A DNA stretch of 64,000 nucleotides from Rhizodiscina lignyota (GCA_010015805.1 ML978136.1:248001-312000); one strand, 5' to 3'; shown: positions 1 to 43,360, numbered from the stretch's first letter. The notes: generated by a model from the sequence alone, not told the origin. Program-made: numbers and translations.

Positions 1-2479
1 ATTGCAACTCCTCCGTCGACTCGAAGAACGCTGAGGCACGTGAACAAATACACAGGGTTGCGCAGCTTCTCCGGAAGCTCTATTGACATGACTTCCGTAT
101 CTCCAACGAGTCAATCACACAGGAGCTCGCTGAATTCGGACGATGCAGCAGCAAGAAAACTCAACCACAAGAGAGCCAGTATCGGAGAAAAGCGAAACCT
201 AGATAGTATTGGATCCGAGTCAGATAATACACTGCCCCCGCCGGAGTTGCGTCGTCCGTTGAAGCATCATCGGGACTACAGTCACGTAAGTCAAGCACAA
301 CTCGAATTATCGTGGTGCGCTTCAGAAGCTAATTTCATGTCTTTAGTTGCGACCAAATACGGCTTCATCGTCTTCCACAGCGCCCCAAATAGACTCGTCA
401 CCGCAAAAGCTGCGCAAAGTTGGTGAATTCGAAAGTTCCCCAAGGACCTCTCAATTGACGGGCTCGACAACTCTAGACCAAAACGGTATGGCGCTGATCC
501 AGGACTCCAACTCGCAACCCTCGTCTCCAAGAACAGCGCGGAGAATACTGGAAGGCGGGCCTAGAACATCGCCGAAGGTGCTTCAGACAGAGAAGCCAGT
601 AGTCATTCGGAAACCAGTCAGGACTGAAGTGAAAGCCCATGGGCCAAAGCCAGAGAAGCTCAATCTCGGCCCTTTTCCGATCACTCCAGACCCACCATCT
701 CCTGTTCGTGGCCGTACGACGTCTCAGTCTTCAATCGAACCACGGACGCATCTGCAGCCGCTCTTACCACCTCATTCACGTTCGCGGACCCGCAGCGTTC
801 GTCCCCGTGAAACATCGGACACGTCGAATGCTTCTGAGGAAAGTCGACGCGTGAGCTTCGATAATACATCGATTCCGAACGAGCATTTTGAGTATATCAC
901 GAGAAAGAGTGGGGATAGTCGACGCTCCACCATTCATACTCTTGATGAAGGTAGTCACAATGGGCCGCAGACGCCTCACTTGTATCCCCCCGTTACTCCA
1001 TTGAGTATGAGTAGCATGCGCTCTGAAGTACCTGAAGTCAGCGAAGCCAAAACGATAAACATATATCCACACAATAATCACAGCTTGCTGGTCATTCAAC
1101 ACGGGGGATCTCCAACCGAAGCAGCGCAAAAGGAGACTGTTCAGGCGCCTGTCGAGCCAATATCTGCTCAGAACAATACGGAAGCAGTGCATGTTCAGGA
1201 GAACGGAACACCGCCAATGCCGTCCGATCTCCACCGTGCAATTGACGCAATTGAAGGCTCAGCAACCCCTACTCCTCCATTAGTACCAGTGGCGACGTCG
1301 TCACGAACAGAAGAGATATTGCACCTCACGCCTCCCCTCTCGGCGCACGAACAGCATCCGCCACAGGCACCTCAATTACTCGTTCAACCGTCTACACCGC
1401 CAGCTAACGCGCAGTCCTTTGCGGAAGTAGACTCACCGCTTCGAAATCCGCGGAAGCCGCCTCAGCCACCAGCCGTCAAATTGATCCCTCCGACGCCATT
1501 CTCGGAGCTGGACAATCCACTTGATTCTGCTGGCTCTCATGTTGCTCCTCAAGCGCCTGTTCGCCGGTTAAGTCTAAAGCAACGCGCTCGGCGGTACAGC
1601 GACTCGTTCATCCAGCCTATTCTCAGCCGGAGCGGTTCACTGAAACGGAATCTCAGCATCAAGCAGAGCAAGAGGCCGATCACTGCTGACGAGCAGGAGC
1701 GGGTGAGAGATACCCGTCTGCATCCGCTGTGGCGCCCAAGAGGATTCTGGGACGACTTTTCAGACAGCGACTCAGATGATGGTTTCTGGGGCGACGGCGA
1801 GATAGCGTACGCCGACGACGGCGTCGAGCATCGACTTCCTCAAGGAGGAGATACGAGCGATGTCAGAAGCCTCGAGCACGATCGAGGCAGAGGCGTGATA
1901 GGGAGATTTGGTTCAGTGCGGAAGGTCGTGATGGATGGGTTCCGTGGCAGTGGCGGCTTCCTTATCGGCAATTCTCTCGGCATGGAGAGAGCGGGCACCA
2001 ACAGGCGAAGACATCATGTCTCTCTTCCTGTGCGAATCCAGGGCCGTGTAGGCAATGGCGCTGTGGCGCCTGTGGGGATTGCGCGAATCGCGAGGGTCAA
2101 CCCGCCTAGCCATATCAACGACTACGGCGGCGCTGCTGCGGCACATCATAGTGCGGCGCCACGTCCGAACGGTGATGCAGCGGTTGGACCAGTTTCGCAC
2201 AACACGACCCAGCCGCTCTCAGTCCGCTCGCGTTCCGGATCGCGATCTAGGTCGGGATCGACATCTCTGTCGAGTTTCCCTTCGAGCTACTCGTCCACCG
2301 GGAATTCGGCACGACGGAGCAAGAGCTGGAGAAGAAGTGTCAAGTTCCCCTTCCGCATTGAATACGTGGGATTCAGCGGGTTGGCGGAGCGGATGAGAGA
2401 GAAGAAGGCAGAGAAGAGGAGGGAGGAGATCAGGAAGAGCATTGGACGAGGGGTTCTGGTGCAAAATAGAGTGGCGTGA
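1..2479 (+). CDS. Ser/Pro-rich hypothetical fungal protein, 5' end outside the window
   Basis: The frame of ORF 40..426 joins ORF 347..2479 through a phase-0 GTAAGT...CTAAT...TAG intron at 286-346. The protein is low-complexity with conserved-looking blocks (IYPHNNHSLLVIQ, LHPLWRPRGFWDDFSDSD). No domain recognised. Confidence 0.65.
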
Positions 2480-9517: not shown

Positions 9518-11290
9518 GTTTTCGGTCTTGTCTCGTCTCTTCAAAGGCTCGTCCGCAGTGGTGTGAGAAGCGGAAGACGCGTCCTTGGGACGATGCGCCG
9601 TTGGACGTCGCCCGTCCGCGGGCCGGTCAGGGTCCGTCAAGGTGGACAGCGTGACAGACGGTGATGTTGGAGGTGGAGTTGGGAGAAGCAGCGACGCTTC
9701 GCCCTACAGACTGGCAGTCACGGGCAGCACTTCTTCCAGATGCTGCCCTTCAACAACGCGAGCCTGAGGGGTAGAGAAGTGGGTATAAGTGCGCCAGGCG
9801 TGACTTTAGCAGTGCACAGCGTGCAGAGTTTGCAGGCGCAAACAGAGCCTTGCCGGCGGCTGGCGACCGCGTGGTGCTGCGCGCAGGAGATGGGGAGTGT
9901 TTCGTTTTCTGCACGTCAGAGGCTCCCAATAGCGACACGCCTTCTCCTGAGCACTCCGCGATTTCCGATCAGTAAGGCTCGGGCGCGAATGCGGCTCCGG
10001 CGCAGATGCAGTTGGGGTCCTGTCTCGACTTGCGGCGGTTGTGTGGGCGCGCAGGAGAGAGGGAAGCGGATAGACGCCGGGGACGAGGGTGGAGGGCCAG
10101 CGCTTCAACCTCGGGCGCACTGCGAGAGGGCGGTGCAATGCCTGGCGGAGAGTTGTATTATAAACACAGTCGAGGGGGTCAGCGGGTGAGGAGTCGGGGG
10201 GAGTAAGAAGTGCAGGTCGCGCGCTGGTGGTTGGTCGGCAGCTCGGGCAAGGGCGCGAAGACGGGCGGCTAATCCAGGGCCACAGAGCGGACGCTTCGCG
10301 ATGCCAGCGGCGCTGCGAGGAGGCGTGCAGCAGAGCGTCGCGTCTTGTCAGGACAATGAGGGCGTTGTTCTCGTCCTCTTTGTTGCAATGTCGAGCGCCG
10401 TCTCGCCGGGCGAGGGTGCGTCTGGCGTGGAGTGGAGACTTGGGTTCCTTGGGCTGCGCTATTTTTGGAGCGTTTCAGAGTCTTGCGCCGAATTGAGGGC
10501 TGGCCGGGCTGCTGATGCCTGTCTGGGCCAAGGCGCGTGTGAGATTCGAGGTCCAGATGGTGAGATGTGAGATCTGGCCGGCGCCGGTGGCGACGTGCTC
10601 CTGTCCTGTATCAGATCTGGGCAGCAGTGGGGAGCAGCATGTATAGAAGGCGAGTACGTAGAAAGAGCAGGTGCCCCAGCCTGATCGCCTCTTTTGTTCT
10701 CGACGAGGAGGCGGTGGTTTCGTTTCACCATTGCTAGGCACATGCACCCAGCGTTACTCAACGTCCGGTCACGAGCGCTGCAATTCTCCGACCTCACTCC
10801 GTCCATATTGCTCCGAGCACCACCACCACCGAGATCCGCTTCGACAACGAGCCCAGCACTGTCAATGGAAGTCCTAGATTTCGTCAGTATTTGATCTTTC
10901 GCACATGTTCTTAATCTCTCCCTTGCGAAGTTGCAAGGGGCCTCACTCGCTCAGCCATGAGGTCAAAGCCTGTACACAGCATCAACTGGTAGGTGAGCTT
11001 GACATTGCGATACCACCATCACGCCCAACTGATGAAGATGATGAACATTATTCATTATGCAAACCTCATCGCCTCAATCTATTCGCTTCCTTGAAAGCCA
11101 CTGTCGTATTTCCTCACTCAATGATACACCACCCAGAAGTGGTGGCTGCGGCACAGCGTCCTCGAGTTTCATATGCAGGGACAGATAGTCCAAGGAGAGG
11201 CCGCCTTGTAGCCTTGAAAATCTCCATTTTAGCCTTCGTTGTGAATGAATCCGTCCGCTTGCTTCTCTCATTTTTGCCAATGTCTACCTA

Positions 11291-13435
11291 ATGGCCCAAT
11301 ATCCAGACTATGAAGGTCTCCAACTCCACCCCGAGGACGACGGACTGCAAGTCTCTCCATCAGACGGCCCTGAACGCGTACCACTGGAAGAGCCAGGGGA
11401 GAATGGCAAAGAAGTTGCGCGCGACGACGAGAAATTGGCCATTGGCACCGACGACCAGAGCCCAAAGTCGACAAAATATTTCCTTGGTCTCCGGCCACAA
11501 TCATTCTGGATCACGTTCATCATCATTCTTGTTGTTATTTGTGCTGCAATCGGTGCAGCTGTTGGAGCAACCTCGAGAGTGCGTCTCATATTACATGTGA
11601 TCATTGCTGCCCTTGCTCACAGCAGTATGCTACAGACACGCAGCAGCAGTGCTCCACTGCCGCCGAAGCCCTCCTCATTGCAGCCCAGGCCTGCTTCTCC
11701 GACATGCACACACGGCCCAGGGACGAGGAACTGCTGGAGCGACGGTTTCGACATCGACACAGACACGTACGAGAAATGGCCCACCACGGGGAAGGTGGTT
11801 CGATACGAGCTTGAGATTACCCAGAAGACAATGCAACCCGACGGTCTTTTAGCAGACATGTTAGTAGTCAACGGTCAGTACCCTGGACCGACAGTATACG
11901 CTGATTGGGGCGATACATTGTCCATCACGGCGACAAACTCCCTCCCGGAGAATGGCACCGGCCTTCACTGGCATGGCATACGACAATTCCACACCAATCA
12001 GATGGATGGCGTGCCAGGTGTTACAGAATGCCCCATTGTTCCGGGTGCCAGCAGGACTTACACATTTGTTGCAACGCAGCATGGCACTTCATGGTATCAC
12101 AGCCATTATTCGACTCAATATGGAGATGGACTTGCCGGGCCCCTTGTCATAAACGGTTTGTCTGGCGGATAGAGAGGTGGGGTGTACTTACCGCTAACGT
12201 TTCAAGGCCCATCAACAGCGGATTATGACATTGACTTGGGCGTCTTGCCAGTCACAGACTGGATCGACGGCGCTCCTCCAGGCCCCATCTACACAGATCC
12301 GGACCATAATCAATGGGCTTTGGACAGGCGCCCTGTCGCCAGTAACTTTTTGATCAATGGCTCCATGCTATGGTGGTTTAATGATACCGTTGGCCAATAC
12401 GCAGTAACGACGCTCACACCGGGAAAGAAACACCTTCTCCGACTTGTAAATACTAGTGCAGCTTCATGGCTGCACGTGTCCCTGGATAGCCACTCTTTCC
12501 TTGTCGTTTCTGCCGACTTTACGCCAGTAAAGCCATTCTCAACCAAATCCTTGTCAATGGCCATTGGCCAGAGGTATAATGTCGTCATTGAAGCAAATCA
12601 AACTACTGGAAGCTACTGGTTTCGTGTCGGGAGCGGCAATGGCGGTTGGGCAGATGTTTGTGATGAAGCCAATATCAATGAAAATCGAACAAAAAGCATC
12701 TTTAGGTACCATGGAGCTCAAGCAGGAGATCCGAAGAGTACTCCAAGCATCCTACCGATAGGCTGCTATGATGAGATGTCGCTCGAGCCGTACGTCAGCG
12801 CGAACGTCCCCCCTTCGCGCCCTTCCACGATAGCTATAGCCTATGTCCCACCAAAGGTACACAACACTTCGAAGGTAGACAGCAATGAGATTCCTGGCCT
12901 ATGGACAATAAACAAGACGGCAATCAAAGTTGACTGGGCAGTCCCCAGCCTGCAACAAATTGCATCGAATGATCTGAGGCCCTTCAGGAACGCATCTCTC
13001 AATACGACCTCGCCAAATGAGTGGGTGTATTGGCATTTCACGAAAACTGGGCCCGCAACCGATGTGGCCCATTCTATGCACCTGCACGGTCACGACATGT
13101 ATATTCTAGGCTCTGGTACGAATTTTGAGCAGGATGCCCATAAGCTTAATTTTACAAACCCCATGCGCCGCGATACAGCCGCAATCCCAGGAGGCGATAC
13201 TGGCTACTTGGTTGTTGCATTTCGCGCGGATAACCCTGGCATATGGCTAATGAACGACCAGAATCTCTTTCTCATGGCTGCGGGGTTGGGCTTTCTGTTC
13301 GTTGACAATTCGAGTGACATCATCGGCACTCTTGGGGATCTCGGTGACCTGAAAGCCGACTGTAAAAACTGGACTGCCTCTGGCCCTGTGTATCCGGGAG
13401 CCAATGCAGCAGTACCACTCGATTCAGGCCTTTGA
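11291..13435 (+). CDS. Laccase-like multicopper oxidase (AA1) with N-terminal transmembrane anchor and a degenerate L4 copper motif
   Basis: L1 HWHGIRQ...DGVPGVTECPI, L2 GTSWYHSHYSTQYGDGL and L3 HSMHLHGHD are present. L4 reads DNPGIWLMNDQNLFL. Introns are 12156-12206 and probably the in-frame 11579-11635. TM segment: FWITFIIILVVICAAIGAAVG. Confidence 0.9.
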
Positions 13436-13717: not shown

Positions 13718-14634
13718 TCAGCTCTTCAACGCTCCACCAATCTGTCTCTCTACATCCGTCGCCACCATCACCGACTCCATCTGCTTATCACAATAATCAT
13801 GTTGTTTCCTGAAATAATGGTTCTTCCCATTCACCTCTACCGCGAGCCCATAGCCCTTACCGGCCTCCACCTTCGTCCCATACGCATCGGTCATATCCTT
13901 CCCGTCAACGAGCATCAGCACCGACTCCACAATCTTCTCCACAGGCGTAAAATATTCCTCGGGGAAATTTGCCCAGCCTTGTGCATCTAGCAGGTTCGTG
14001 CGCACGGTGCCAGGGCAGATACAGTTCACTCTAATACCATCGTGCAGGAAGTAGTACTTCGCAATACTACGCATCAAACCAACGACACCAAACTTAGACG
14101 CGGAATACACAGGGCTGAATGGCGAAGGATACAGGCCACCACAACTCGCCGTCTGCACGATGATGGAATCAACGCCTTTCGGGTTCTTCTTCATGTAGTG
14201 GTTCGCAAGGTACGTCTGCCACACCACGCTCGTGAGGTTGACATCCAGCGTCAGCGTGAACGGCGCCGGCGGCGGGTCTTGTTCGTCTGCGGTGTCGTAG
14301 AACGACCTCCTCTCTACGATCCCGGCGTTCGCGAAGACGAAGTCGAGCTGTCCTTCGGCCTTGAAGATCTTGTCGAACGTCTGCGCGAGCGAGTCGTAGT
14401 TTGTGCAGTCGACTTTGTGGAAGTGTGCGTTCTTGCCGATTGATGACTCTGCCTTCGCGCCGGCGTCTGTGTTTAGGTCCAGCAGGTGGATGTGCCAATT
14501 ACCGCGCTTCCCCAAGGCTTGGGCAACGGCGAGTCCCATGCCGCTGGCTGTATAGAGCGTCAGTGGTTACATAATTTGGGGATGTTGAGAGGAGACGGCG
14601 TACCTCCGCCTGTGATGAGTGCTACGGGAGGCAT
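13718..14634 (-). CDS. Short-chain dehydrogenase/reductase (15-hydroxyprostaglandin-dehydrogenase-like, NAD-preferring)
   Basis: Exon 1 MPPVALITGG splices to ASGMGLAVA, giving TGxxxGxG. An Asp follows beta2 (HLLDLN). Also FANAG and catalytic YSASK. Confidence 0.9.
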
Positions 14635-15333
14635 GATTGCTGAATTGAAGATCTTTCTCACAAATTCTTTACTCTTTGCTTGTGTACGATAAGGACTGAC
14701 GATGGATAAAAGAAGTAACAGACCACGAAGTGAATTGGAAGAAACCGATGAACGATGAGAGATGTACAGCTCTCAGCCATCCTTGGACACCTCCATTATG
14801 GTACCGCCTTTGCCGGTCCTCGTCACAATTCTACTCCCCAACTTACTCGACGCGTTTTCCGGACGCGTCCCACTGGGCATTCAGCTCAAGCTCCAGCGCT
14901 AATGATGATCCTGCGTGACAATGCATGGTGGGCAGTGGAGGGGTCCAGCCGTCGTCCGCGAATGGAAAAGGCGCCTTTGCGGGGTCCGTCTTCCGCAGCA
15001 ACCTCGCCCTTCGCTCACCACGACACTGGAAAAGCAGAGCCGCGACCTCGAAGTTCCACGCCGTCGCCCCGCCTATGCGCACCGTCGTGCGAGTCGTTGA
15101 GCGATGGGTTTGCGGAGATACTCATGTATGTCCGAATCATGTTCTGTGACGTTTCTGCCACGGCGGCCGAGAAAAGTCGGAGAGAAGGGAAGTGACTTTC
15201 GAACTGTTTCGGCTTTACCTCTCTTCAGTCCTTTCCACATTCTAGTTATCCTCAAGAGTTTCCCTGAACACGTTTCTATTCCGAGTGTAACTCTCTTCGT
15301 ACATTCTCTTGACTCTCGACTGCCTCGCCCACA

Positions 15334-16923
15334 ATGGCGTTCAGCTTCTCAAAGTCCAACCTCCCCAAGCAGCTGTTCATCAACAACGAATTCGTCGCCT
15401 CGAAGCATGACAAGAAGCTGAAGCTTTACAATCCCGCTGATGGCTCTCTCGTCGCCGATGACGTCGCCCTTGCTGGCGAGCAGGACGTCGATGCCGCAGT
15501 CGCAGCGGCGGAGAAGGCCTTCCCAGCTTGGAGAGCTATAAGCTCCGGCGAACGACGCTCCATTATGAACAAGTTCGCACAACTGATTGAGGACAACACA
15601 GTTGCATTGTCGGAGCTCACGAGAATCACTCTTGGCGCTCCGTACGTGAGCTTCGGCAAGTTCGAGGCGGGCCTGGCCGCAGAGGCGAGTAAAGTGGAAT
15701 TGTTTAAAGGAGCAAGAAGCTAATACAGGAGCACACAGGCATTCAGATACAATGCCGGCTGGATCGACAAGTTCGGCGGCGAGTCCTGGCCCCAAGAAGA
15801 CGGCTTCATGAAAATCGTGCGCAACGAGCCCCTCGGCGTCACCGCAGGCATCGTGCCCTGGAACGGTCCTCTCGGCACCATCGGCCTCAAGGCTGGCCCG
15901 GCTCTCGCAACTGGCAACTGCTTCATCCTCAAGCCGTCCGAGAAGACGCCATTCGCCTCCCTCGCGCTCGGCCCGCTGATCAAGGAGGCTGGCTTCCCAC
16001 CGGGCGTCTTCCAGGTGCTTAGCGGCGATGGCACAACCGGAGCGTTGCTCGCGAGCCATATGAGGGTTCGCAAGGTCAGCTTCACGGGCTCGATCGCGAC
16101 GGGAAAGAAGATCCAGGAGATGGCGGCGAAGAGCAACCTCAAGCGCGTGACGCTCGAGCTGGGCGGGAAGAGTCCCGCGGTCGTGTTCGACGACTGCAAC
16201 CTCGACAACGCGGTGACGTGGACGGCGAATGCGATCACCGCGAATACGGGACAGGTGTGCTTTGCCGCGAGCAGAGTGTACGTGCAAGAGGGGATCTACG
16301 ACAAGTTCATTGAGGGGTACAAGAAGGCGATGGAGGACAAGAAGAAGGATATCGGGGATCCGGGCAAGGCAGAGACGCTGATTGGACCTCTGGTCGACGA
16401 GGCACAGTTCAAGCGCGTCTCTGGATTTATTGAGCGAGGTCAGAATGGCCAGGGCAAGTTGCTCACGGGTGGACAGAGGATCGGGGACAAGGTAGGCTGC
16501 ATGACACCATCTCTCCACTTTCGTCCTGCTTGAGTCAAAATATTGATACTCGACTCACAGGGCTTCTTCATCGAACCCACCGTCTTCACCGACGTCGACC
16601 CCACCTCGGAAATCCACACGCAAGAGATCTTCGGCCCCGTCTCCGTCGTCCGCTCGTTTAAGACGGAGGAGGAGATCATGGAGTTGTCGAACAACACCAA
16701 CTTTGGCCTGATGGCCGGCGTCTTCACGCAGGACATCAACAAGGCGATGCGCGTCGCGAGCAACTTCGACAGCGGCATGGTCGGCATCAACTGCGTGAGC
16801 TTGATGTTCATGATGACTCCGTTCGGCGGCAGCAAGGAGAGTGGGCTGGGACGGGAGTGCGGCATTGCGGCGCTGAGGGCGTACACGGATCCGAAGACTA
16901 TTATGGTGAATTTGACGTATTAG
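15334..16923 (+). CDS. Aldehyde dehydrogenase
   Basis: IVPWNGP, LKPSEKTP, SFTGS, LELGGKSP, catalytic Cys in GQVCFAASR, EIFGPV and PFGGSKESG. Introns are 15685-15738 (GC-AG) and 16492-16560. Confidence 0.95.
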
Positions 16924-17038
16924 GTACTGGAGTTGTAGCTTTTGAATTTGCAATTCAAATAGCATTGGAATGAGAATATATAGCATCTAGGAGCCATTTC
17001 GAGGAGTCTATTCTCGTGTGTATTCCCATTCTACTTCT

Positions 17039-18330
17039 TCAATGTGCAGGAGGAATCAACTTCCCCTGCCTCATCCGATCGAACACCACGCCCCACGCCT
17101 CCATCACACTCCTCTCCTCCTCAAATCCCGTGCTGTACGTCTTCGTCATGTCGTACTGTCTGTCGAAATCGAACTGCGTAAGCAAGAAATACTCGAAGCC
17201 CTTGAACGTCAGATCGCTGTCCGCAACGCCCTTCTTCAGCCCATACTTGCTCTCCAGCTTGTACCAGGTGTCGACGTGATCGCTGATGTATTTCCGCACT
17301 TCGATTGGATCACCTTGCTTCGGGGGAGGCGTGCCCTCGAGACCAAAGTATGCACATAGTTGCGGCCATTTGGAGGACCAGGTCTCGGGTTGCTTTGCGT
17401 CGGCGACGTTGAAGCCTTCGCCTTTGTGTGCAGGCGCGAGAGTTAGCGAGAGGTGGATTGTTTGGCGGGCGATCATGTCGGAGGAGGAGTCGTTTGACTT
17501 GTTGACCCACGATTTTGCCGTGCCCTGAGAATTGTTCAGTGTATATCCCAAGAAGATGCATCAGTCAGCCGTACCGGAAACGGGCATTGTGCTCCCTTGC
17601 CCTCGACTGCTCGATACAGTGCTAAGAATATTCCAAGCACCGTCCCAAGGGAATAGAAATTTTGGTTCGGGACGAATCCGATGATGATGTCTGGCCGTGT
17701 GTCGCACCAGTTCCACTTCTTGTCCTTTGCATACTCCGTAACCCAGTCCAACTGCGGATGGTAGAACAGCAGGTCGTGATATGGTTGCTTCAGGCGAGGG
17801 AAGCTCTCCTTCAACGGCACATGGATATAATCCGTAGGATGGTCCTCTAGCAGATGACAACCATACATCTTCGCGCCAGTCTGCAGCACCACGAATTCCA
17901 ATGCCGGGCTAAGATGGTCCATGGCTATCGTCGAGCGCCTGAACATGTCCACGGCATCCAGCAACTCGGCGTGGAGATCCTTCTGCGCTTTGTACGCGAG
18001 ATAGTAGACATGCGTGACTTTCTCCACTTCTTCAACTTTGGATTTGATTTCAGCCTCCAGCTCTTCCTGTGTGCCTTTAAGCAAGTCTATTCCAGAGACG
18101 ATGTTGAGACGAGGGTCGGTCGGCCATAGCGAGTCTTCTTGCTTTAGTGGCCGATTCGTGAGAGCGTGCACTTTGGTCCAGATGCCCTTCTTCGGGTAGT
18201 CGTTTAGCATTTCGTTCACAAAAGACCATCCTGATGTGACTCAGCGTCCTGGTTTAACAACTTGAACGGATGGAATGTTACCGGACACGCCAGACGCGCC
18301 GAAGATCAGTGCAGCCTTCCCGCCACCCAT
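17039..18330 (-). CDS. PRISE/SirQ-like NAD(P)-dependent reductase (progesterone-5beta-reductase/iridoid-synthase-like SDR), copy 1
   Basis: ALIFGASGVSGW, ALTNRPL, VTHVYY, LQTGAKMYG, LFYHPQ and RPDIIIGF are the PRISE motif set. At least 2 introns. Confidence 0.85.
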
Positions 18331-18972
18331 TCTGGTTATCGTGGAATAACCTTTATAGACACGTCTAGAAAAAAGAGAGAGAGAACCAATTGATCAGAAA
18401 ATGAAGGGAATTGAAGAAAGTTCGGATACGCGTCAACGACTTGGAACGCTTCAATTACGGAGCAGGCGCGTCTCTGACCTGCGGAGAAGCCACGCACACT
18501 TCCGCAAGGCACGCGCATCGGGGTCATGTTGATCGATCCGTGATGCCGTCACTTACCTTAGCTTCCGCATGTACAATGGGTACGTCCTGGAGTAAGATGC
18601 GGGTTTGCTCTGCCGTTCACGAGATGGAGAGATGGATGGAGCCCCGAGCTGCCCCCACATCACATGGGGGATGTCCTTATCCGTCATTGTGACGAGTCAG
18701 GATAACATCTCCTTTGAAGGAGCATGAATCATTAGAAGGATGGGATCCATAGTTATGAAAGAGTGAGGAACATCGCAGTCTGAGACTTTCAGAGCTGACC
18801 ACCAAGAATTCCATTATCGATTTGCACAAGCTTTGGTAGATTCGAAGGCCTAGGGAATCGTATGCATTCAGGGGTCTAAAACCAGGTCGCTTAATCAACG
18901 TCTTGAGCGTTATGAAAATTGCATGCCTAAGGTATAGGCCTTGTAACACAGCATCATACAATCAGATGCACC

Positions 18973-20365
18973 TCAAAATGTCTCAAACTCAATTCCCCAC
19001 TTCTCGCATAGCTCCTTTCTTCTAGTTTCGTACCCGTCAAACCTTGCCTTGAACGCCGGGGCAGTCTTCAGTTGATCTCTTCCAACCTGATGTCTATGCG
19101 CAGCATCCGGCCCATCAGCGACTCTGACAAATCTTGCATATGTCCACATCTCTGGCAGTACCGTATGCTGCGTCAGTCCTTGTCCTCCATACATTTGCAT
19201 GCATTCGTCGATGATTCTAACCGCCATGTTCGGAATCAGAATCTTGCTCTGAGCAATGGCATATTTCCCAGCCTTGTTGCCCTGCGTGTCCATCACATCT
19301 GCAGCGTTAAGAACCACCAGCCTCATGGCATCAAGCTCGAGCCGCATTTGGGCTAGACGCTCAATGTTGCTGTCGAACTCGCCGATCAGCTTACCGCGTG
19401 GCTTCTTGCGGGGATCGATGGCGCGGATGAGAGCCAGCTCGTACGCACGCTCCGTTTGGCCTATCAAACGCATACAGTGGTGGATTCGGCCAGGGCCGAG
19501 ACGACCTTGTGCGATTTCGAACGCACGCCCGGGTCCAAGGATGATATTCTCAACGGGGACGCGTACATTCTCATAGACGTACTCGCCATGGCCTTCGGGG
19601 GCATGATCGTAGCCCATGATGGTGAGGTTGCGCTTCATCTTCAAACCGGGAGTTTTAGACGGGACAATCAGTGTAGTGTGCCTTCTCCAGCGGTTTGGGT
19701 TCGTGGGGTCGGAGCAGCCCATCAGTATGTAGATGCCCATTTCATCGTTCCATTGTGCATTGCCGTAGAGTTTTCGGCCGTTGATAACGACAGTATCGCC
19801 TTCTATCTTCATGCTGATGCCGATTTGGGTAGCGTCTGAAGAGGCAACATCGGGCTCAGTCATTGAATATGCGGACGCCATGGAACCCTCCATGAGAGGC
19901 TTTAACCATTTCTCTTTCTGTTCCGGAGTGCAGTATTTTGCAAGCAGCTCAATGTTGCCTGTTTCGGGGGCGTGGCAATTCATAGTCTATGAAGTTGTGA
20001 GCTTCAGCAGTCGCATCCAAGTTAAGAGAGCATACTTGTGCTGCCCAATAACACCGTCCCATTATCTCTGCACAACATGAATACTCCAAGTTCGTAAGAC
20101 CAGGGCTTTCTTCGAAGTGATCTGGCAAGAAGAGGTTGAAAAGACCCGCAGATTTCGCCTTCTTCCTCAGTTCATGCATAACTGCCGGCGTCTTCCAATG
20201 GTCTTTGGCAACTTGTGCCTTGTACACGGCTTCTGCTGGTATACATTCTGTCTCAATCCAGTCATAGACTTTTTGAATGATATCGATTGCCTGCGGTCTC
20301 AATTTCGCTTTCACCCAAGAGGGGATGCGATTGAATGCTGGGTTGTCTTCCATTGAGACGGTCAT
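18973..20365 (-). CDS. Acyl-CoA dehydrogenase, ACAD10/ACAD11 (LvaC-like) class
   Basis: GLFNLFL, GLTNLEY, NCHAPETGN, MTEPDVASSDA, AQGRLGPGRIHHCMRLIG, and RVADGPD (Asp-type catalytic loop characteristic of ACAD10/11). One intron at about 19987-20035. Confidence 0.9.
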
Positions 20366-20523
20366 TATGGTAGTTGAAACGATTGGAGAAGAGGGGCGAT
20401 TCAGAGGTGCAGTAAGAAAACTGAAAATATTCCTTACAATTTTGAGATGAAGTCAAATTCTCTAGGAGCTCGGCATTTACCACGACAGCCGCACAAAGGT
20501 CTAGCCAGACGCGCACCACATGT

Positions 20524-20529
20524 CCGAGG
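20524..20529. promoter_or_regulatory. Putative FarA/FarB (fatty-acid/peroxisomal regulon) site CCGAGG in the ACAD/hydrolase divergent promoter
   Basis: Exact CCGAGG hexamer. It is a short motif and could be chance. Confidence 0.35.
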
Positions 20530-20739
20530 TGGAGGTCGTGTTGGAGACGCGGCGCGGCGGCGGGGAGCGCGACTGGGGAAGATGATTTCCGGCGCTGGCC
20601 TCCGTGCTAACAATTACACAGTACCAAACGTCGTACAGAGCCCTCCACTCTTCGGCCAAGGCTAGGAACGTCATGGCAGTCGTATATGTGTCCTGTGGGT
20701 GCATGGTCGACCGCATTCGTCAGTTTGAAGCCATTGAAA

Positions 20740-21807
20740 ATGGGTGACGAAGTTTTTGCGCAGCCATGGCTGGAGGTTGGTTCCGTATGAATCTCTTCTC
20801 ACGAACAAATTACTGACGTGTGAGAAGTTTGAAAAGGAGCTAGGATTCCGTCCTCTCCTTCATGGTCCTCTCGACAATGTCTTTGCAGGATGGGAGAAGC
20901 TCGGCGGAGCGCTCGTGTCCAAGTTCGAGTTCCCAGCCCCTGACGATTCGATACAAACCGAAGATCGGACAATAGATGATGGCCTCAAAGTACGGATCTA
21001 CACACCAAAGGACCACTCTGGAAATAAGCCTTTCTGCTTCTATACTCATGGAGGAGGATATGCTATGGGAGACTTAAATATGGACGATGGTGGATGCCGT
21101 GTCCTGGCGAGTGCAGGCATAATTGTCGTATCTATCGACTACCGCCTCGCACCGCAGCATAAGTTTCCAGTTGCTTTGGATGACTCTATGACCGGCCTGC
21201 ACTGGGCGTTTAAGAATGCCCAAAGCCTTGGTGCTTCACCGGAGAAGGCTATCATCGCAGGAGCGTCAGCAGGTGGTCAACTGGCGCTGGGTGTTGCTCT
21301 ACGGCTGATCGACGAAGGGAAAGGCGATCTGTTAGCCGGAGTCATCGCACAAGTACCGATCACCCTACACCCGGATGCTGTGCCTGAATCTTTGAAAGCC
21401 AAGTTTACTAGCTACGATGAACATGCGGAGCATACTGTCAACACCAAGAACGCGATGGCGGCCTTCAACGGTGCATACGACCCACCACCAACGCATAAGT
21501 ACTTTTCGGTGTTGTTGCACGACAAGATAGACGAGATGCCGAAGACATATATTACGTGTGCCGGTGCGGACACGCTGAGAGATGATGCTCGGGCGTTTAG
21601 AGATGCACTGAAACAGAAAGGGTGAGCCAAAGCTACAAATTTGTGTTTAAATTTCATTTTGCTAACGGGTTTAGTGTCCCATACAAGTACGACGAATATC
21701 CGGGCTACCCTCATTACTTCTGGACATTCCCTGCCCAATCATTAAAGGCACCAGCAGCCGAGTACAATAAGAATTTAGTAGATGCGGTGAAGTGGATACT
21801 TTCATGA
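20740..21807 (+). CDS. Alpha/beta hydrolase, hormone-sensitive-lipase (Abhydrolase_3) family esterase/lactonase
   Basis: Exon 1 MGDEVFAQPWLE, intron 20776-20827, then HGGG, DYRLAPQH, nucleophile GASAGG, acid in DTLRD and His in GYPHYF (last exon). Confidence 0.9.
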
Positions 21808-21917
21808 TACTCCGTAGATTACGAACTATGAATGAACTTTCGAAACGAGCCTTGATCATTACTCGAAATTTGACTAAACAATGCAATGCACACAGACGCC
21901 CACCTTGCATACCTCAT

Positions 21918-23253
21918 TTATGGAATAATCTTCGCTTTCCGAAATCTATCAAATGCAGTATACCACGTCTGTTTCGTATCCCATTCTTCCGCCTTTTCTC
22001 CCCATGTCTTCAGCGTCTTGGTCATATCCATCTGGCGATCGAAATTCAACATGGTCATAATGAAATATGGAAATCCGCCGAAGCTCCTCTCATTGCCCAC
22101 TCTCCCTGCCTGTAACCCGTGCTTCTTCTCCAATTCTCTCCACTCTGATAAATGCTCTGCCACATACTGCGGAGGCTGCGGTCCACTGCCTCCTGCCGGC
22201 GGGGGTGTACCCTTGAGCTCGAAATACTCGCAGATCGTAGGCCACTTGGTCGACCATGAGGTCGGCTTGGATGAATCGCACGTGTTGAAGGCCTCGCCGT
22301 TGCCACAGGTTTCAGGATGGAGAGATACATAGATACTGAAGCGTGCAATAAGATCCTGGCCGCTGTCGTTGGAGAGGTTCGTCCACGATATCTCTGTACC
22401 AGGGAAGGGGACCTCAGCACCGGCGCCATTAATCGTACGGTAAAGGGTGAGGTATAGAGCAAGGTGTTGGGCGAGGCAGTAGATGTTATTGTTCGGGACA
22501 AAGCCGACGATCATATCCGGTCTGCCATTTTGACGTCAATATAGCCTGAGAGGTTAAAAAGATGATAGGCGAGGAGGGTAGCATACCGCACTTCACACCA
22601 AGTCCAGGACTTGCCCTTCGATAGAGAGTCTAGCATGTCACACTGATTGTAGTAAAACATCTCAGATGCGTATGGTTCTGGTATGCGGGGAAGAGATTCT
22701 TTGACCGGTAACTCATTCGGCCATGGAAATTTGTCCAGGAGATGGACACCGTATGCCTTCGTTCCTGTAGGAAGCACGACGAACTTGAGCTTTGTTGAAA
22801 GGCTGTCAATTGACTCAACTGCTCGCTTCAGCAGATCAACGTTGATATCAATCTCTTTCTGAAAGAGAATTAGCCTTTAACGCGACGCGTTTTGGAAATA
22901 TATATACTTGTGGTTCAGGATCCATGATATATGCTGTTTACTGTCAGACAAGTTTCCTACTCCAGCTGGGCCAAGCTAGTCTCACCAAAGAAATAAACAT
23001 GAGATACAGTGTCGACATCTTTAATGCGTTTCTTCATGTCCTCCTGGACCCCGTCTTTACCCAGATCGATCCCACTGACAACCTGTAGCTTTTCGCTCTT
23101 CGGCCAAATCGCTGCATCTGCACTCAATGGCCGATTCGTGAGCGCCGTAACTTTGTCGAATGCTCCAGCATCTGGATATCCTTCCAATATGGCGTTGACA
23201 ATGGCCCAGCCAGTAATACCGCTGGCACCGTAGATGAGCGCGTGATTCCCCAT
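21918..23253 (-). CDS. PRISE/SirQ-like NAD(P)-dependent reductase, copy 2
   Basis: HALIYGASGITGW, ALTNRPL, VSHVYFF, LPTGTKAYG, EMFYYNQ, IVGFVPNNN and FDRFRKAKIIP. Several introns. Confidence 0.85.
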
Positions 23254-23638
23254 TCTGACAACTGTTGATGATGCAAGAAAGTACAGAAAATATAAAGAAG
23301 AGATTGACAAAGCAGATTGAATTGAAAAAACCAAGGGAAATATTTTATCCCCTTGTGCCTGATCACAAGAGCAAAGCGCGTCTCGTCGCGCCCGTCCTGG
23401 AGAAGCCCCTCCGCAGCAGCGGAGCTTGCCCCACAGTACCTACCTCCATGGCTGCTTGCGTTGCATGAGGCCTGAATCGCTTGTCATCATGGCGACTCTG
23501 TTTGGGCCTAATGATTCTGTCAGAGCTTCCTTAGGCGTTGGTGCTGTGGTAGGTGACGGTTAACGAAACCCGGCCCGACCCTGAAGGCGAGTCTCGGGGA
23601 GAGGCCAAAGGCTTGTCCCAATTCGGTAATAACCACCA

Positions 23639-23644
23639 CCTCGG
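23639..23644. promoter_or_regulatory. Putative FarA/FarB site CCTCGG in the PRISE2/APH-kinase divergent promoter
   Basis: Exact CCTCGG hexamer about 190 bp upstream of the kinase ATG. Confidence 0.35.
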
Positions 23645-23831
23645 CACACGGTGAAGCTTGAGCAATCTGAGTCTTGAGCGGAAAAGAGCCGGCCTGGATC
23701 GAATAGTGTTGCCAGCTGGAAATGAACTGGAATGATGTATTGACCGATAAGTTGTATATACTCATAAGCGTCTGAAACCGATCGTTGGGACAAGACGAGC
23801 AGCTGTCCACGATCAGTAAACCCCGCTCACG

Positions 23832-25062
23832 ATGGCTGGGCCAGTTCGACAGGCAATTGATATCCCTTCGTTGGAGCGATACATCGACAGGACCGTACCA
23901 GAGATAAACACACCAATACAACTGAAGCAGGCAAGTATTTCAATGGCTCTTCGTACCGCACCTAAGACTGACTACTATCCAGTTCGGTTATGGCCAATCG
24001 AACCCGACTTACCAGATCATATCAAGCTCAGGCAAGAAATATGTCATGAGAAAGAAGCCGCCTGGCAAGCTCCTGTCAAAGACGGCACACAAAGTCGAGC
24101 GCGAATACCGAATCCTCCACGCTCTAGACCAAACCGACGTACCTCACCCACATGTATACTGCCTCTGCGAAGATGACTCGGTGGTCGGCTCGGCGTTCTA
24201 TATAATGGAGTTTCTTGATGGTCGTATATTTGAGGAGCCGCATATACCTGAAGTGAGCGCAGAAGAGCGGCGCGAGATGTGGCATGATGCCATTCGGACA
24301 CTGGCAAAACTGCACAGACTGAACCCGAAGAGCATTGGACTCGAGACATTTGGAAGGCCCACAGGATTCTACAATCGGCAAATCAAAACGTTCAAGGGTC
24401 TAAACGAAATCCAAGCCGCGACCGTAGACGTGGAGTCGAAACAAAAAGTTGGCCCGGTCCCACACAATGACGAGATTTTGGCCTTCTTCGAGAACCCAGA
24501 ATACCAGCCGAAAGATCGAGGCGCGCCAATTCATGGAGACTACAAGATCGACAACCTGGTCTTTCACAAGACGGAGCCGCGCGTTATTGGCATATTAGAG
24601 TAAGATATATCCTGAAATTAGTCAGTGATATGGGTTGCTGACTGATTGAACAGCTGGGAGATGTCTACCATCGGTCATCCGCTCTCAGACCTGTCGAATC
24701 TTCTCGTCCCCTATACGCTCACATCTCACGTCCCCGAGTCCGACGTAGAGGCCCGTAGAAACGCACGAGCCGCTTTCAGACCCACGAAATTGTTAGCTGG
24801 TCTGCCAACTCCGGACGAATGTATTCAATGGTATGCTGAAGTTGCCGGATGGAATCCTGCAGCAGAGTTTCCGTGGGGTGCTGCATTCAGCATGTACAGA
24901 GATTGCATCATCTTCCAAGGCATTGCAGCAAGATATGCAGTCAGGCAGGCGAGCAGTCCGAAGGCATATCAAGTCGGTCAGGAGATGGAACCATGTGCAA
25001 AGGTGTGTTGGGAGTTGGTAAAAGAGGCAGAGAAAGCAAAGCGATCGACAGCGAGGTTGTAA
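23832..25062 (+). CDS. APH/choline-kinase-family phosphotransferase, ACAD10/11 N-terminal (LvaA-like) type, with PTS1
   Basis: [51 protein letters not shown] and [12 protein letters not shown]. Ends in ...STARL*. Introns are 23931-23982 (GC-AG) and about 24600-24653. Confidence 0.92.
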
Positions 25063-40922: not shown

Positions 40923-41866
40923 TGTCACGCTGCAGACCAGTAAAGCGCACACAAAGCGCGAAAATGGACCACGGAGAGGATGAGAAGAATGTCTCGAAAT
41001 CCAGCTGGGAACAAATGTGTAGAGAAATCATCTGGGAAAGAAAACGCCGTGAGAGAATAGTGCTGTCTCGGGTACTTACGATTCGGTTCGAAGGGGTGAG
41101 AGCAAGCGTGCCATCAGGCCGGAACCAAAGCCGGGGAGAAATTGTTGGAGTCGCAGTACATAGTGTCTTTGTGCCTCCCTGCTCTCCGCAGGAGGCCAGT
41201 GTAACCAGGCTAGAGTGAGGTTCGCAGGGAAGATTTCATGCTCGGGCGCTGATCCTCCGCACTTCTCTCCACATCTCCGAGAAGATCAGCAAGGGGACGA
41301 TATAGGTATCCAGAAATGTTATTCAGGTCTGGGCCACGCCTGGCTTCACTCTCCTTCCTATAGTGACTCTGTACACAAAGCAATAGGCGTTGTGATAGAG
41401 TTGAGGTTTTAAGGGAAAGCCAAGCTGCTAAGCGGGATCGGCCCGCTTCGGCTGCTTCGACAGGTGCGGTGCCACCGACGCGTCTCGCGTCTCTAGAGCT
41501 GGGGAGCTTCGAAACCTCAGCTACTGTAGAATTCTCCTCGGCATATTACGCAGTATGCGTCATGCCTGAGATATAGGCCCATTTGATGCACTCTTGAGCT
41601 CTACGCGCTCTACTTTCCTCAAACGACGTCGTCCGCATGCCCGGCTGAAGTGCCGCGGCAACACTTCGTAGGATGTATATTTTCGAGATGGGAGCTAACC
41701 GTCCGACTTCAACTTATCCTTCTGGCACATATTTCGGAGCTACCGATTACGCTCAGACAGAAAGCAGTACCGTACTCTCAAGGACATATTGTTTATGACT
41801 GAGTATAAGAAGTGCATTCGTCGTCTCTCTACACTCATCTCAACAATCACAACTAACAACACCAGA

Positions 41867-43360
41867 ATGGCGAGCGTCCAGAATAACGTCGAAGCTCATC
41901 AGAATGGAATCTCCGGCGAACTTCCACCTGGAGCGCCAGATCGATCTTCGTTCACCACCATGGACTCGGTTAAACATATATGGCTTGGCATGGGCTTGCC
42001 CAAAGAAGCGCTTGATTCCATTTCATTCAGCGACGAGGGACTAGGTCTTCCATCATCGTTCAAAGTGGGCCATATTGCGCAAGCGTCAATCGGTCTCTCT
42101 GTTCTTGTCGCAGCTCTCATCCATTCTTTACGCAACAACATCGAAGTCCCACATGTCTCTGTTCCGCTGAGACATGCCTGCGCGGAATTCTTATCGGAGA
42201 GGTTCTGCTCAGTAGCAGGTCAAAAATTTGAACACCCATGGGCTCTTGGTGGTCTTTACAAAGCATCTGACGGCTACGTTCGCATCCACGATGCATTTCC
42301 GAATCACCGCTTCGGTGCTCTTGCTCTCCTTGGGTTGGGCAAGGATGCTACACGCGAGGATATTCGTCAAAAGGTTCTGAAGTGGGCTGCGATTGACCTA
42401 GAGCGAGAAGCATTCAACAACAAGATTGTCATTGCAGCGCTGCGCTCGTACATGCAGTGGGATGCTGCGCCGCACTCAAAGGCAATCGCCACCTTTCCCA
42501 TACAAATCCGAAAGCTTGCTCCGGGCCCGAAAGGACTTTCGCCTCGCATAGGAGCGGGCGCCGACAAGTGCCTACGAGGCGTTCGAGTAGTTGAGATGAG
42601 CAGAGTCATTGCTACACCTGTTGCTGGTCGAACATTGGCAGCTCATGGTGCCGATGTGATATGGGTTACGAGCCCGAATCTTCCGGATCTACCGAACCTG
42701 GATCGCGACTCAGCCCGTGGAAAGCGGAGCATCCAGCTCGATATTCGAGTGCCCCAAGATAAGGCAAAGCTTCTGGAGCTCCTCAAAGATGCTGATATTT
42801 TCATTCAAGGATACCGACCTGGAAGTCTTGCAGCCAAGGGCCTTGAGCCAGAAGAACTCGTCAAAATTAACCCAAACATCATATGCGGAAGCCTGTGCGC
42901 ATATGGCAATTCCGGCCCATGGGCCAAAAATCGGGGGTTCGATTCTCTCGTGCAGACTTGCAGCGGTATGAATGTCTCGGAAGCAGAGCACTATGGCGAT
43001 GGCTCACCTGCTCGTCCAACCCCCTGTCAAGCTCTTGATCACGGAAGCGGATATTTCCTTGCCACGGCCGTAATGGCAGCGCTGTACAAGCGTGCTACGG
43101 AAGGTGGCAGCTACGCAGTTGACGTCAGTCTGGCAGCAACTATGAAGTATCTGCGAAGCCTTGGTCAATACGAAGGCAAAAGCGGCTTTGCCTGCGATGA
43201 TATGAAGAAGGCAAAAGATGTCGAAGAGCTCATGGCAAGGAGTATAAGCGGGTTCGGCGAGTACCACTATCTCACGCACAGCGCACAGATCGATGGTGTG
43301 AAAGTTGGTTGGGACAGAATGCCAGTGCCGCTGGGGAGCGACGAGGCTGTGTGGATTTGA
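41867..43360 (+). CDS. Family III CoA-transferase (CaiB/BaiF)
   Basis: LRGVRVVEMSRVIATPVAGRTLAAHGADV, RGKRSIQLD, DIFIQGYRPG, RGFDSLVQ and PCQALDHGSG. Intronless. Confidence 0.92.
   Translation: MASVQNNVEAHQNGISGELPPGAPDRSSFTTMDSVKHIWLGMGLPKEALDSISFSDEGLGLPSSFKVGHIAQASIGLSVLVAALIHSLRNNIEVPHVSVPLRHACAEFLSERFCSVAGQKFEHPWALGGLYKASDGYVRIHDAFPNHRFGALALLGLGKDATREDIRQKVLKWAAIDLEREAFNNKIVIAALRSYMQWDAAPHSKAIATFPIQIRKLAPGPKGLSPRIGAGADKCLRGVRVVEMSRVIATPVAGRTLAAHGADVIWVTSPNLPDLPNLDRDSARGKRSIQLDIRVPQDKAKLLELLKDADIFIQGYRPGSLAAKGLEPEELVKINPNIICGSLCAYGNSGPWAKNRGFDSLVQTCSGMNVSEAEHYGDGSPARPTPCQALDHGSGYFLATAVMAALYKRATEGGSYAVDVSLAATMKYLRSLGQYEGKSGFACDDMKKAKDVEELMARSISGFGEYHYLTHSAQIDGVKVGWDRMPVPLGSDEAVWI

Follow-up and report, generated by a model that had tools for sequence, protein, structure and literature searches.

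A widespread fungal gene cluster with a separate ACAD10/11-type kinase and dehydrogenase, most likely for lactones and 4-hydroxy acids derived from the oxidation of plant lipids

The fungus Rhizodiscina lignyota carries seven contiguous enzyme genes at positions 13718-25062 of the 64-kb stretch GCA_010015805.1 ML978136.1:248001-312000 (64,000 nucleotides, the whole of the DNA that we analysed, here called the window), two of which encode a kinase and an acyl-CoA dehydrogenase (ACAD) of the ACAD10/11 type. A phosphorylate-and-eliminate route for 4-hydroxy acids has only recently been assigned, in mammals and Pseudomonas, and the locus raises the question of whether its genes work together and, if so, on what substrate. 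A preliminary description had proposed that they form a complete route for 4-hydroxy and 4-oxo acids built around a split ACAD10/11. Our comparison of the locus with its relatives indicates that the genes belong to an old, widespread fungal cluster, which most likely serves growth on lactones and 4-hydroxy acids that arise when plant lipids are oxidised. The kinase/ACAD chemistry is known (ACAD10/11, lva); as the preliminary description had supposed, no fungal cluster of this composition was found described in the literature covered, which did not extend to subscription papers and supplements, so that a cluster database may still contain it as an unannotated entry.

All seven genes are intact and intron-bearing, and their families and orientations are as first described. 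Pfam analysis of the open reading frames (ORFs) of the window finds adh_short, Aldedh, PRISE (twice), Acyl-CoA_dh, Abhydrolase_3 and APH at the expected spots. The seven spliced models have no internal stops, and their introns (49-69 nt) are GT-AG or GC-AG, the latter being the first introns of the aldehyde dehydrogenase gene (15685-15738) and of the kinase gene (23931-23982). The homologue search returned annotated R. lignyota proteins (P0350 and P0351) that are letter-identical to our models of PRISE-1 and PRISE-2, which validates these two models and identifies the window as Dothideomycete. NCBIfam gave no match above its curated cut-off for 17 proteins, among the matches listed. The model coordinates also confirm the three divergent pairs, with gaps of 699 bp (SDR/ALDH), 374 bp (ACAD/hydrolase) and 578 bp (PRISE-2/kinase). 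The features are as follows.

13718..14634, minus strand: classical short-chain dehydrogenase/reductase (SDR), 286 aa, 2 exons; TGGASGMG, S145, Y158xxxK
15334..16923, plus strand: aldehyde dehydrogenase (ALDH), 488 aa, 3 exons, first intron GC-AG; E257, C291
17039..18330, minus strand: PRISE-1, enone/enal reductase family, 396 aa, 3 exons; K137, Y173
18973..20365, minus strand: ACAD10/11-type flavoenzyme of the fungal 'KLYGN' subfamily, 447 aa, 2 exons
20524..20529, no strand assigned: CCGAGG/CCTCGG core site of FarA/FarB/CTF1, 164 bp upstream of the ACAD gene in the shared ACAD/hydrolase promoter
20740..21807, plus strand: hydrolase of the hormone-sensitive lipase (HSL) family, candidate lactonase, 320 aa, 3 exons; HGGG, GASAG (S159), D260, H290
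21918..23253, minus strand: PRISE-2, 389 aa, 4 exons; K132, Y167; 46% identical to PRISE-1
23639..23644, no strand assigned: Far-type site CCTCGG in the PRISE-2/kinase promoter, 193 bp upstream of the kinase gene
23832..25062, plus strand: APH kinase, ACAD10/11- and LvaA-type, 374 aa, 3 exons, first intron GC-AG; C-terminal ARL, resembling a type 1 peroxisomal targeting signal (PTS1)

The ACAD10/11-type identity of the ACAD and the kinase, on which the preliminary description was built, is upheld by their active-site residues. The closest solved relatives of the ACAD are 4hr3 (a putative acyl-CoA dehydrogenase) and ACAD11, with E-values of 1e-85 to 1e-71, and further ACADs match at 1e-26 or weaker. 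Mouse ACAD11 requires R626, H634, R637 and the catalytic D753 (PMC12440821). By alignment count, R272, R277, H280, R283, H243 and D401 of the R. lignyota enzyme correspond to mouse R626, R631, H634, R637, H597 and D753, and these six residues are invariant in all 124 full-length fungal homologues. The catalytic residue is an Asp instead of a Glu (D401, in ADGPD), and the phosphate-binding HCMR helix is kept. The subfamily to which this ACAD belongs is a clade with 100% support and a stem of 0.84 inside the fungal ACAD10/11s (FastTree), and stands beside KWW-type proteins of Armillaria and Cladochytrium. An intron-bearing gene of the ordinary ACAD10/11 type was also recovered in a metagenome locus (L045), and we infer that each ascomycete keeps both types. 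The ACAD tree roughly follows fungal class, which suggests an old origin. The ACADs and kinases of Polytolypa and Myotisia (P0019, P0021, P0247 and P0260) group with Dothideomycete and not Eurotiomycete copies; as to horizontal transfer into these two genera, an approximately unbiased (AU) test did not reject the alternative (p = 0.07). Separately, a divergent ACAD10/11 relative in Venturia nashicola (P0527) has its HHCMR and DGPD motifs replaced, which suggests a third, catalytically altered paralogue.

The kinase matches ACAD11 with an E-value of 3e-36. Its family is marked by a beta3 Arg, an HxDxK loop, an Asn and a DWE motif (bioRxiv 2025.09.10.675409), and the window kinase has a complete set: R56 in beta3, an alphaC Glu in ERE, D219 and K221 in HGDYK, N224, and DWE at 239-241. 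The equivalent of the CoA-contacting R176 is kept as well, the Arg of FYNRQ aligning with YCKRQ of 8v3v. In a quick tree of 38 kinases, the window kinase and all nine demonstrably linked kinases fall into one group of 20 (SH-aLRT 90), every member of which is linked, lies on a cluster contig or is one of two paralogues in its genome. The other group includes five demonstrably unlinked kinases and one copy from each two-copy genome. With a kinase in its own paralogue group and an ACAD on a long branch, the two look like a dedicated pair. Judged by the PTS1 consensus, most kinases in this tree carry PTS1-like ends, the window kinase ending in ARL. We also observed that, where the kinase is linked, it carries a PTS1 and the ACAD of that genome does not; the ACADs of Aspergillus, Penicillium and Exophiala have PKL, AKL or SKL as their last residues, and the kinases found in Aspergillus are unlinked. 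Piggy-back import of the ACAD with the kinase is a possible interpretation of this pattern.

The separation of kinase and ACAD into two genes, around which the preliminary description built its proposal, proved to be ordinary, since no ACAD domain occurs in 120 longer kinase homologues among the matches listed, and since a stand-alone yeast kinase has been tied genetically to ricinoleate use. A split pair is the fungal norm. Chain shortening of ricinoleate passes through 4-hydroxydecanoyl-CoA. In the yeast Rhodosporidium toruloides, RTO4_14567, which is annotated only as a PF01636 kinase and which the paper calls an ACAD11 homologue, and the ACAD10/11 gene RTO4_10408 form a split pair like that of R. 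lignyota; both show ricinoleate-biased growth defects, the kinase deletion fails to grow on ricinoleate, and both are treated as generic beta-oxidation genes (PMC5922974). These defects give 4-hydroxyacyl-CoA chemistry genetic support in a fungus, and the RTO4_14567 phenotype fits the pathway discovered later. The 2018 yeast screen can be re-read in this light, with the stand-alone kinase as the 'ACAD11-like' gene that growth on ricinoleate requires. The two R. toruloides genes are more likely an ordinary pair than members of the KLYGN subfamily.

Conservation of the grouping was analysed in two data sets. In a metagenome scan, 80 of 163 confirmed loci were kept, with flanks of at most 10 kb; 37 loci of at least 66% identity were treated as fungal, by identity to named fungal ACADs, and dropping five duplicates of at least 98% (L014, L018, L029, L031 and L036) left 32 loci, some still closely related. 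For named genomes, counts were drawn from the top 120 matches of each search, consecutive accessions or locus tags served as a proxy for adjacency, and five genera with different or several strains were left out.

The hydrolase gene is the tightest partner, being the divergent neighbour of the ACAD gene in 18 of the 24 metagenome loci with at least 700 bp upstream. Among the 18 loci of at least 9 kb, hydrolase genes occur in 14, PRISE genes in 8, an SDR like 15-hydroxyprostaglandin dehydrogenase (15-PGDH) in 2, and ALDH and kinase genes in 1 each, the SDR, ALDH and kinase counts being lower bounds given the 10-kb flanks. Orthologue-level SDR matches lie near the ACAD in L009 (47%) and L030 (38%), and the 88% identical ALDH gene of L019 is tail-to-tail with PRISE-1 as in the window. 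ACAD and kinase genes lie within three accession numbers of each other in nine of 16 comparable named genomes among the matches listed (Patellaria, Tothia, Aulographum, Eremomyces, Lophium, Mytilinidion, Polytolypa, Myotisia and Kalmusia). ACAD and PRISE genes lie within six tags in 12 of the 20 named genomes listed, on a contig of equal length in five, and unlinked in three. PRISE-2 stands between ACAD and kinase in five named genomes among the matches listed; the order is ACAD, PRISE-2, kinase in Tothia, Aulographum, Polytolypa and Myotisia, and in Patellaria one gene separates ACAD and PRISE-2, as in the window. By comparison, 11 flanking ORFs of the window (including a multicopper oxidase, XPG and SPT6) have no match in the 80 metagenome loci. 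Because cluster members recur beside orthologous ACADs and flanking ORFs do not, the grouping goes beyond chance: clustering is conserved, and order shuffled. The genes are found together in other species, both in metagenome loci and in named genomes, a point on which the preliminary description had staked its proposal. The co-location data argue strongly for the ACAD, hydrolase, PRISE and kinase genes, which recur, and weakly for the SDR and ALDH genes, which have the least backing (SDR in 2 and ALDH in 1 of the 18 long loci).

The long loci contain further genes at orthologue level, as found by Pfam on 140 of 206 selected locus ORFs and by tblastn. These encode Baeyer-Villiger monooxygenases (BVMOs) of two types (7 of 18), a second type of SDR (6), AtuA (5; 62-93%), zinc-dependent alcohol dehydrogenases (Zn-ADH; 5), CoA ligases (4) and P450s (3), and there are genes for major facilitator superfamily (MFS) and Zn2Cys6 proteins too. 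The seven genes are thus a subset of a larger cluster family, and the preliminary claim of a complete route could not be sustained. The commoner BVMO is closest to cyclohexanone monooxygenase, the CoA ligase copy in L023 ends in ARL, and AtuA has been proposed as a C-C lyase for beta-branched 3-hydroxyacyl-CoAs (PMC13689101). In two lineages, cutinase genes (L012:5076-5624 and L013:5323-6502) lie about 2-3 kb from the hydrolase gene, and in L011 and L012 a carboxylesterase gene directly follows the ACAD gene.

The remaining window enzymes have informative relatives. The hydrolase is closest to HSL esterases and vibralactone cyclase. The closest solved relative of the SDR is 15-PGDH, and with only 26-38% identity to SDRs encoded beside bacterial LvaC-like genes it is at most a candidate LvaD equivalent. 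Both PRISE genes encode a PF22917 domain with the catalytic Lys and Tyr motifs; K137 and Y173 of PRISE-1 align with the TGxKxY and FY motifs of plant PRISEs, and TGxKxY and FY[YH] are retained in 114 and 116 of 120 homologues, respectively. PRISE-1 is closest to plant enone reductases, though distantly so (phmmer E-values of about 1e-8 to 5e-5, N-terminal exon), and plant PRISEs accept cyclohexenone, methyl vinyl ketone (MVK), 8-oxogeranial and progesterone (PMC11643720). Two proteins of Mycena (P0403 and P0423), a basidiomycete, are 65-67% identical to PRISE-2 over the searched part, as close as ascomycete orthologues; transfer or contamination is possible.

The promoters were compared as well. 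In fatty-acid and cutinase genes, CCTCGG serves as the FarA/FarB/CTF1 site (PMC5068947, PMC4117967). In the upstream regions of 27 ACAD genes (26 hand-delimited loci plus the window), it was present in 18, whereas 200 shuffles gave 4.6 on average and never more than 11, and in 16 of these 18 it lies at 135-202 bp, so that its position is conserved. It was one of six patterns tested and was also among the top three 6-mers found de novo; 23% of random 470-bp windows contain it. GCGGGG, which we take to be a CreA-type site, is present in 14 of the 27 regions, against 4.6 expected. The conserved Far site favours a core that would serve carbon-source use over one for toxin synthesis. Within the window, third-position GC is 0.68-0.81 in the SDR, ALDH and PRISE-1 genes and 0.52-0.57 in the other four, and Far sites occur in the latter block only, which suggests two sub-modules (13718-18330 and 18973-25062).

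From the genes, their residues, linkage, paralogy and promoter motif we infer every reaction of the following route, as well as its substrate. The best reading is a path from enone to ketone to lactone to 4-hydroxyacyl-CoA and into beta-oxidation, which would probably be peroxisomal. By family chemistry, the 15-PGDH-like SDR would oxidise a secondary or allylic alcohol, the two PRISEs would saturate activated C=C bonds, and terminal carbons would be oxidised by the ALDH, joined in relatives by the Zn-ADH. In fuller clusters, the BVMO would convert the saturated ketone to a lactone or ester. The core steps, which homology supports well, are these: the hydrolase would open the lactone, and a CoA ligase (clustered in relatives, outside this window) would form the 4-hydroxyacyl-CoA. 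The kinase would then phosphorylate the 4-hydroxyl group and the FAD-dependent ACAD eliminate the phosphate to give a 2-enoyl-CoA; in fuller clusters, AtuA may follow by cleaving a beta-branched 3-hydroxyacyl-CoA. The most likely substrate is an enone-bearing oxidised lipid of plants or algae, probably with a ring or a beta-branch, to which the ordinary ACAD11/kinase pair would be poorly suited; alkenals of the HNE type alone are the less probable choice. We put somewhat better than even credence in a catabolic cluster regulated like fatty-acid genes, for which a cyclic or branched oxidised lipid as substrate would best explain the dedicated pair together with the BVMO and AtuA.

A more specific version, doubtful and distinctly unlikely at this level of detail, is that the cluster family mineralises cyclopentanoid oxylipins of plants (jasmonate, 12-oxo-phytodienoic acid (OPDA), phytoprostanes) or other cyclic ketones that are likewise 2,3-disubstituted. 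Once ene-reduced, such a ring would undergo Baeyer-Villiger oxidation to a lactone, and hydrolysis would convert the lactone to a 3-branched 4-hydroxy acid; the specialised kinase and ACAD would turn this into a beta-branched enoyl-CoA, to be cleaved by AtuA after hydration. A literature search combining jasmonate, Baeyer-Villiger and fungi found no publication.

Several observations weigh against the lactone and 4-hydroxy acid route. A cavity-widening proline has been described for ACAD10/11 (P463 in human ACAD11; PMC11342911). The R. lignyota ACAD has A109 instead, and Ala is found in 109 of the 124 fungal homologues; this proline is not universal in the family, since it is carried by 7 of the 124 fungal homologues and by 1 of 41 bacterial-type homologues from metagenomes. 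In the subfamily, KLYGN also replaces KWWSS, and DGPDAAH mostly replaces DGPDEVH. Given the missing proline and KLYGN, the substrate, and even the reaction, of this ACAD may differ from those of ACAD10/11. The ACAD has no PTS1, whereas the kinase has a PTS1-like end, and ACAD10 kinases also phosphorylate alkylglycerols (bioRxiv 2025.09.10.675409). Tblastn and Pfam on 53 ORFs of the 64-kb window found no CoA ligase, BVMO, AtuA or Zn-ADH of the types seen in related loci; that the cluster holds no acyl-CoA ligase had already been noted in the preliminary description. Neither the shared SDR/ALDH promoter nor that of PRISE-1 has a Far site. In the metagenome loci, the kinase gene adjoins the ACAD gene in only 1 of the 18 long ones and in 2 of all 32; ALDH and SDR genes accompany the ACAD gene in only 1 and 2 of the 18, although the 10-kb flanks may hide further cases. 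Among the named genomes listed, ACAD and kinase are unlinked in 6 of 16 (five Aspergillus and Pycnora), with a further one on a contig of equal length, and loci and genomes are related by descent, so the counts are not independent events. Concerning AtuA, Verticillium AtuA3 is mitochondrial and dispensable on citronellol (PMC13399572), and 80 bacterial AtuA loci contain no ACAD10-type gene, kinase or PRISE, an ordinary ACAD being present in 38 of them.

It is possible, though unlikely, that the cluster instead clears linear alkenals (4-hydroxy- or 4-oxo-2-alkenals), butenolides, products of furan opening or levulinate, much as the preliminary description proposed; a PRISE would reduce, the ALDH oxidise and the SDR interconvert 4-oxo and 4-hydroxy forms, and kinase and ACAD would finish. 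On paper, the seven window genes suffice for this scheme, the ligase excepted, and it agrees with the reduction of MVK-type electrophiles by plant PRISEs (PMC11643720), with the kinase and ACAD chemistry shared with the lva pathway, and with the Far site, which suits linear fatty-acid-like substrates. However, it leaves BVMO (7 of 18), AtuA (5 of 18) and P450 (3 of 18 long loci) unexplained and makes the CoA ligase likewise superfluous, and it accounts neither for two long-retained PRISE paralogues nor for a separate, diverged ACAD/kinase pair. Nor is the SDR especially close to the SDRs of bacterial lva-like loci.

An improbable explanation is that an ACAD-hydrolase-kinase core serves mid-chain hydroxy fatty acids (cutin, suberin, ricinoleate), whose chain shortening would yield 4-hydroxyacyl-CoA and gamma-lactones, and that the PRISEs and the other genes are co-regulated passengers. 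The position of PRISE-2 between ACAD and kinase in five named genomes is not that of a passenger, and such acids could already be handled by KWW-type fungal ACAD10/11s and the unlinked paralogue of the kinase. These points have to be set against the ricinoleate genetics of R. toruloides (PMC5922974), the role of the CTF1/Far motif as a response element for cutin monomers (PMC4117967, PMC5068947), the cutinase genes near the hydrolase in L012 and L013 and the hydrolase's place as the tightest partner.

We consider it quite improbable that the cluster is biosynthetic or tailoring, or that its kinase phosphorylates an alcohol that is not a CoA ester, for instance an alkylglycerol. Polyketide synthase, nonribosomal peptide synthetase and terpene synthase families are absent from the 53 window ORFs and from the 140 of 206 selected locus ORFs scanned (10-kb flanks). 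The Far site is conserved, the phosphate-binding helix of the ACAD is kept, and the kinase and the clustered ligase end in PTS1-like sequences, all of which outweighs, in our view, the name of the tailoring enzyme SirQ on some fungal PRISE matches, the resemblance of the hydrolase to vibralactone cyclase, the presence of BVMO, P450, MFS and Zn2Cys6 genes typical of biosynthetic clusters, and the activity of ACAD10 kinase on alkylglycerols (bioRxiv 2025.09.10.675409). Finally, an inherited neighbourhood without shared function is highly improbable: membership does differ from locus to locus, with SDR and ALDH seldom within 10 kb, but it persists across four fungal classes despite shuffled order and orientation, flanking housekeeping genes are not conserved, and the kinase paralogue group tracks linkage.

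The predicted lactone and 4-hydroxy acid cluster resembles several known systems in part. It shares the kinase and ACAD families with mammalian ACAD10 and ACAD11, with all tested catalytic and phosphate-binding residues kept (PMC12440821, PMC11342911). In mammals, however, the two are fused, whereas the R. lignyota pair consists of separate genes on opposite strands without a HAD domain, has an ACAD with the KLYGN flavin-side motif and no cavity proline, and is embedded among hydrolase, PRISE, SDR and ALDH genes. The lva operon of Pseudomonas putida (LvaA, LvaC, the SDR LvaD and the ligase LvaE) likewise clusters a stand-alone kinase with an ACAD and an SDR; a ligase is clustered in fungal relatives (4 of 18 long loci), and bacterial loci show SDR-ACAD-kinase runs. 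Unlike that operon, the R. lignyota cluster is eukaryotic and intron-bearing, its ACAD is 40-49% identical to bacterial relatives, and none of 42 prokaryote-like ACAD loci has a PRISE or HSL hydrolase match. The bacterial cyclohexanol pathway ChnA-E comprises an SDR, a BVMO, a lactone hydrolase, a Zn-ADH and an ALDH. All five of these enzyme classes are found repeatedly in the fuller fungal clusters, where, as noted, the commoner BVMO is closest to cyclohexanone monooxygenase; these clusters add two PRISEs, the kinase/ACAD pair and AtuA, which would imply that the ring is unsaturated and that the product is a 4-hydroxy compound, possibly a branched one. With plant PRISEs, the fungal enzymes share PF22917 and the Lys/Tyr motifs; they differ in being distant and in occurring as two paralogues in an apparently catabolic cluster, and the literature covered yielded no characterised member of these fungal clades.

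These results indicate that filamentous fungi of at least four classes carry a second, diverged and clustered kinase/ACAD copy, and the carriers include litter decomposers, rock-dwelling fungi and plant pathogens. The cluster joins the poorly understood fungal PRISEs, AtuA and KLYGN ACAD subfamily in one testable pathway, for which FarA/FarB would be the predicted regulator and 4-phosphoacyl-CoA the diagnostic intermediate. If the cyclopentanoid version were true, fungi would have a means of breaking down a plant defence signal and feeding on it, and fungal PRISEs and AtuA would gain roles. Practical interest lies in the production of gamma-lactone flavours, in the use of levulinate and valerolactone, in new lactonases and ene-reductases, and possibly in the turnover of plant oxylipins by fungi.

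A link to the terpene-induced cluster of Grosmannia was considered and is unsupported, as O. piceae has the ACAD and is reported to be without that cluster (PMC3680317). The text examined of a paper on the Ambrox pathway contains no kinase step (PMC13599519). The suberin table in the supplement of PMC4117967 gives, in its first block of columns, fold changes of 1.5-3.4, not all significant, for AN7320 of A. nidulans, a peroxisomal ACAD whose gene has a single Far site, and for the genes around it (AN7317-AN7323). Members of the ACAD family of the A. nidulans type end in PKL, and AN7320 is a candidate member only. Elsewhere in the window, a 710-aa ORF without a Pfam match (347-2479, plus strand), a family III CoA-transferase gene (41699-43360, plus strand) and a gluconolactonase-like gene (50157-50957, minus strand) were seen, none of which recurs near the ACAD in relatives. 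The multicopper oxidase gene that adjoins the cluster (11249-13435, plus strand) was rejected as a member, being unlinked to the ACAD in relatives. Its product keeps HWHG, WYHSH and HxxHxHG and reads WLMNDQNLFLM where laccases carry the HCH copper motif, so that the protein is probably laccase-like but inactive or repurposed.

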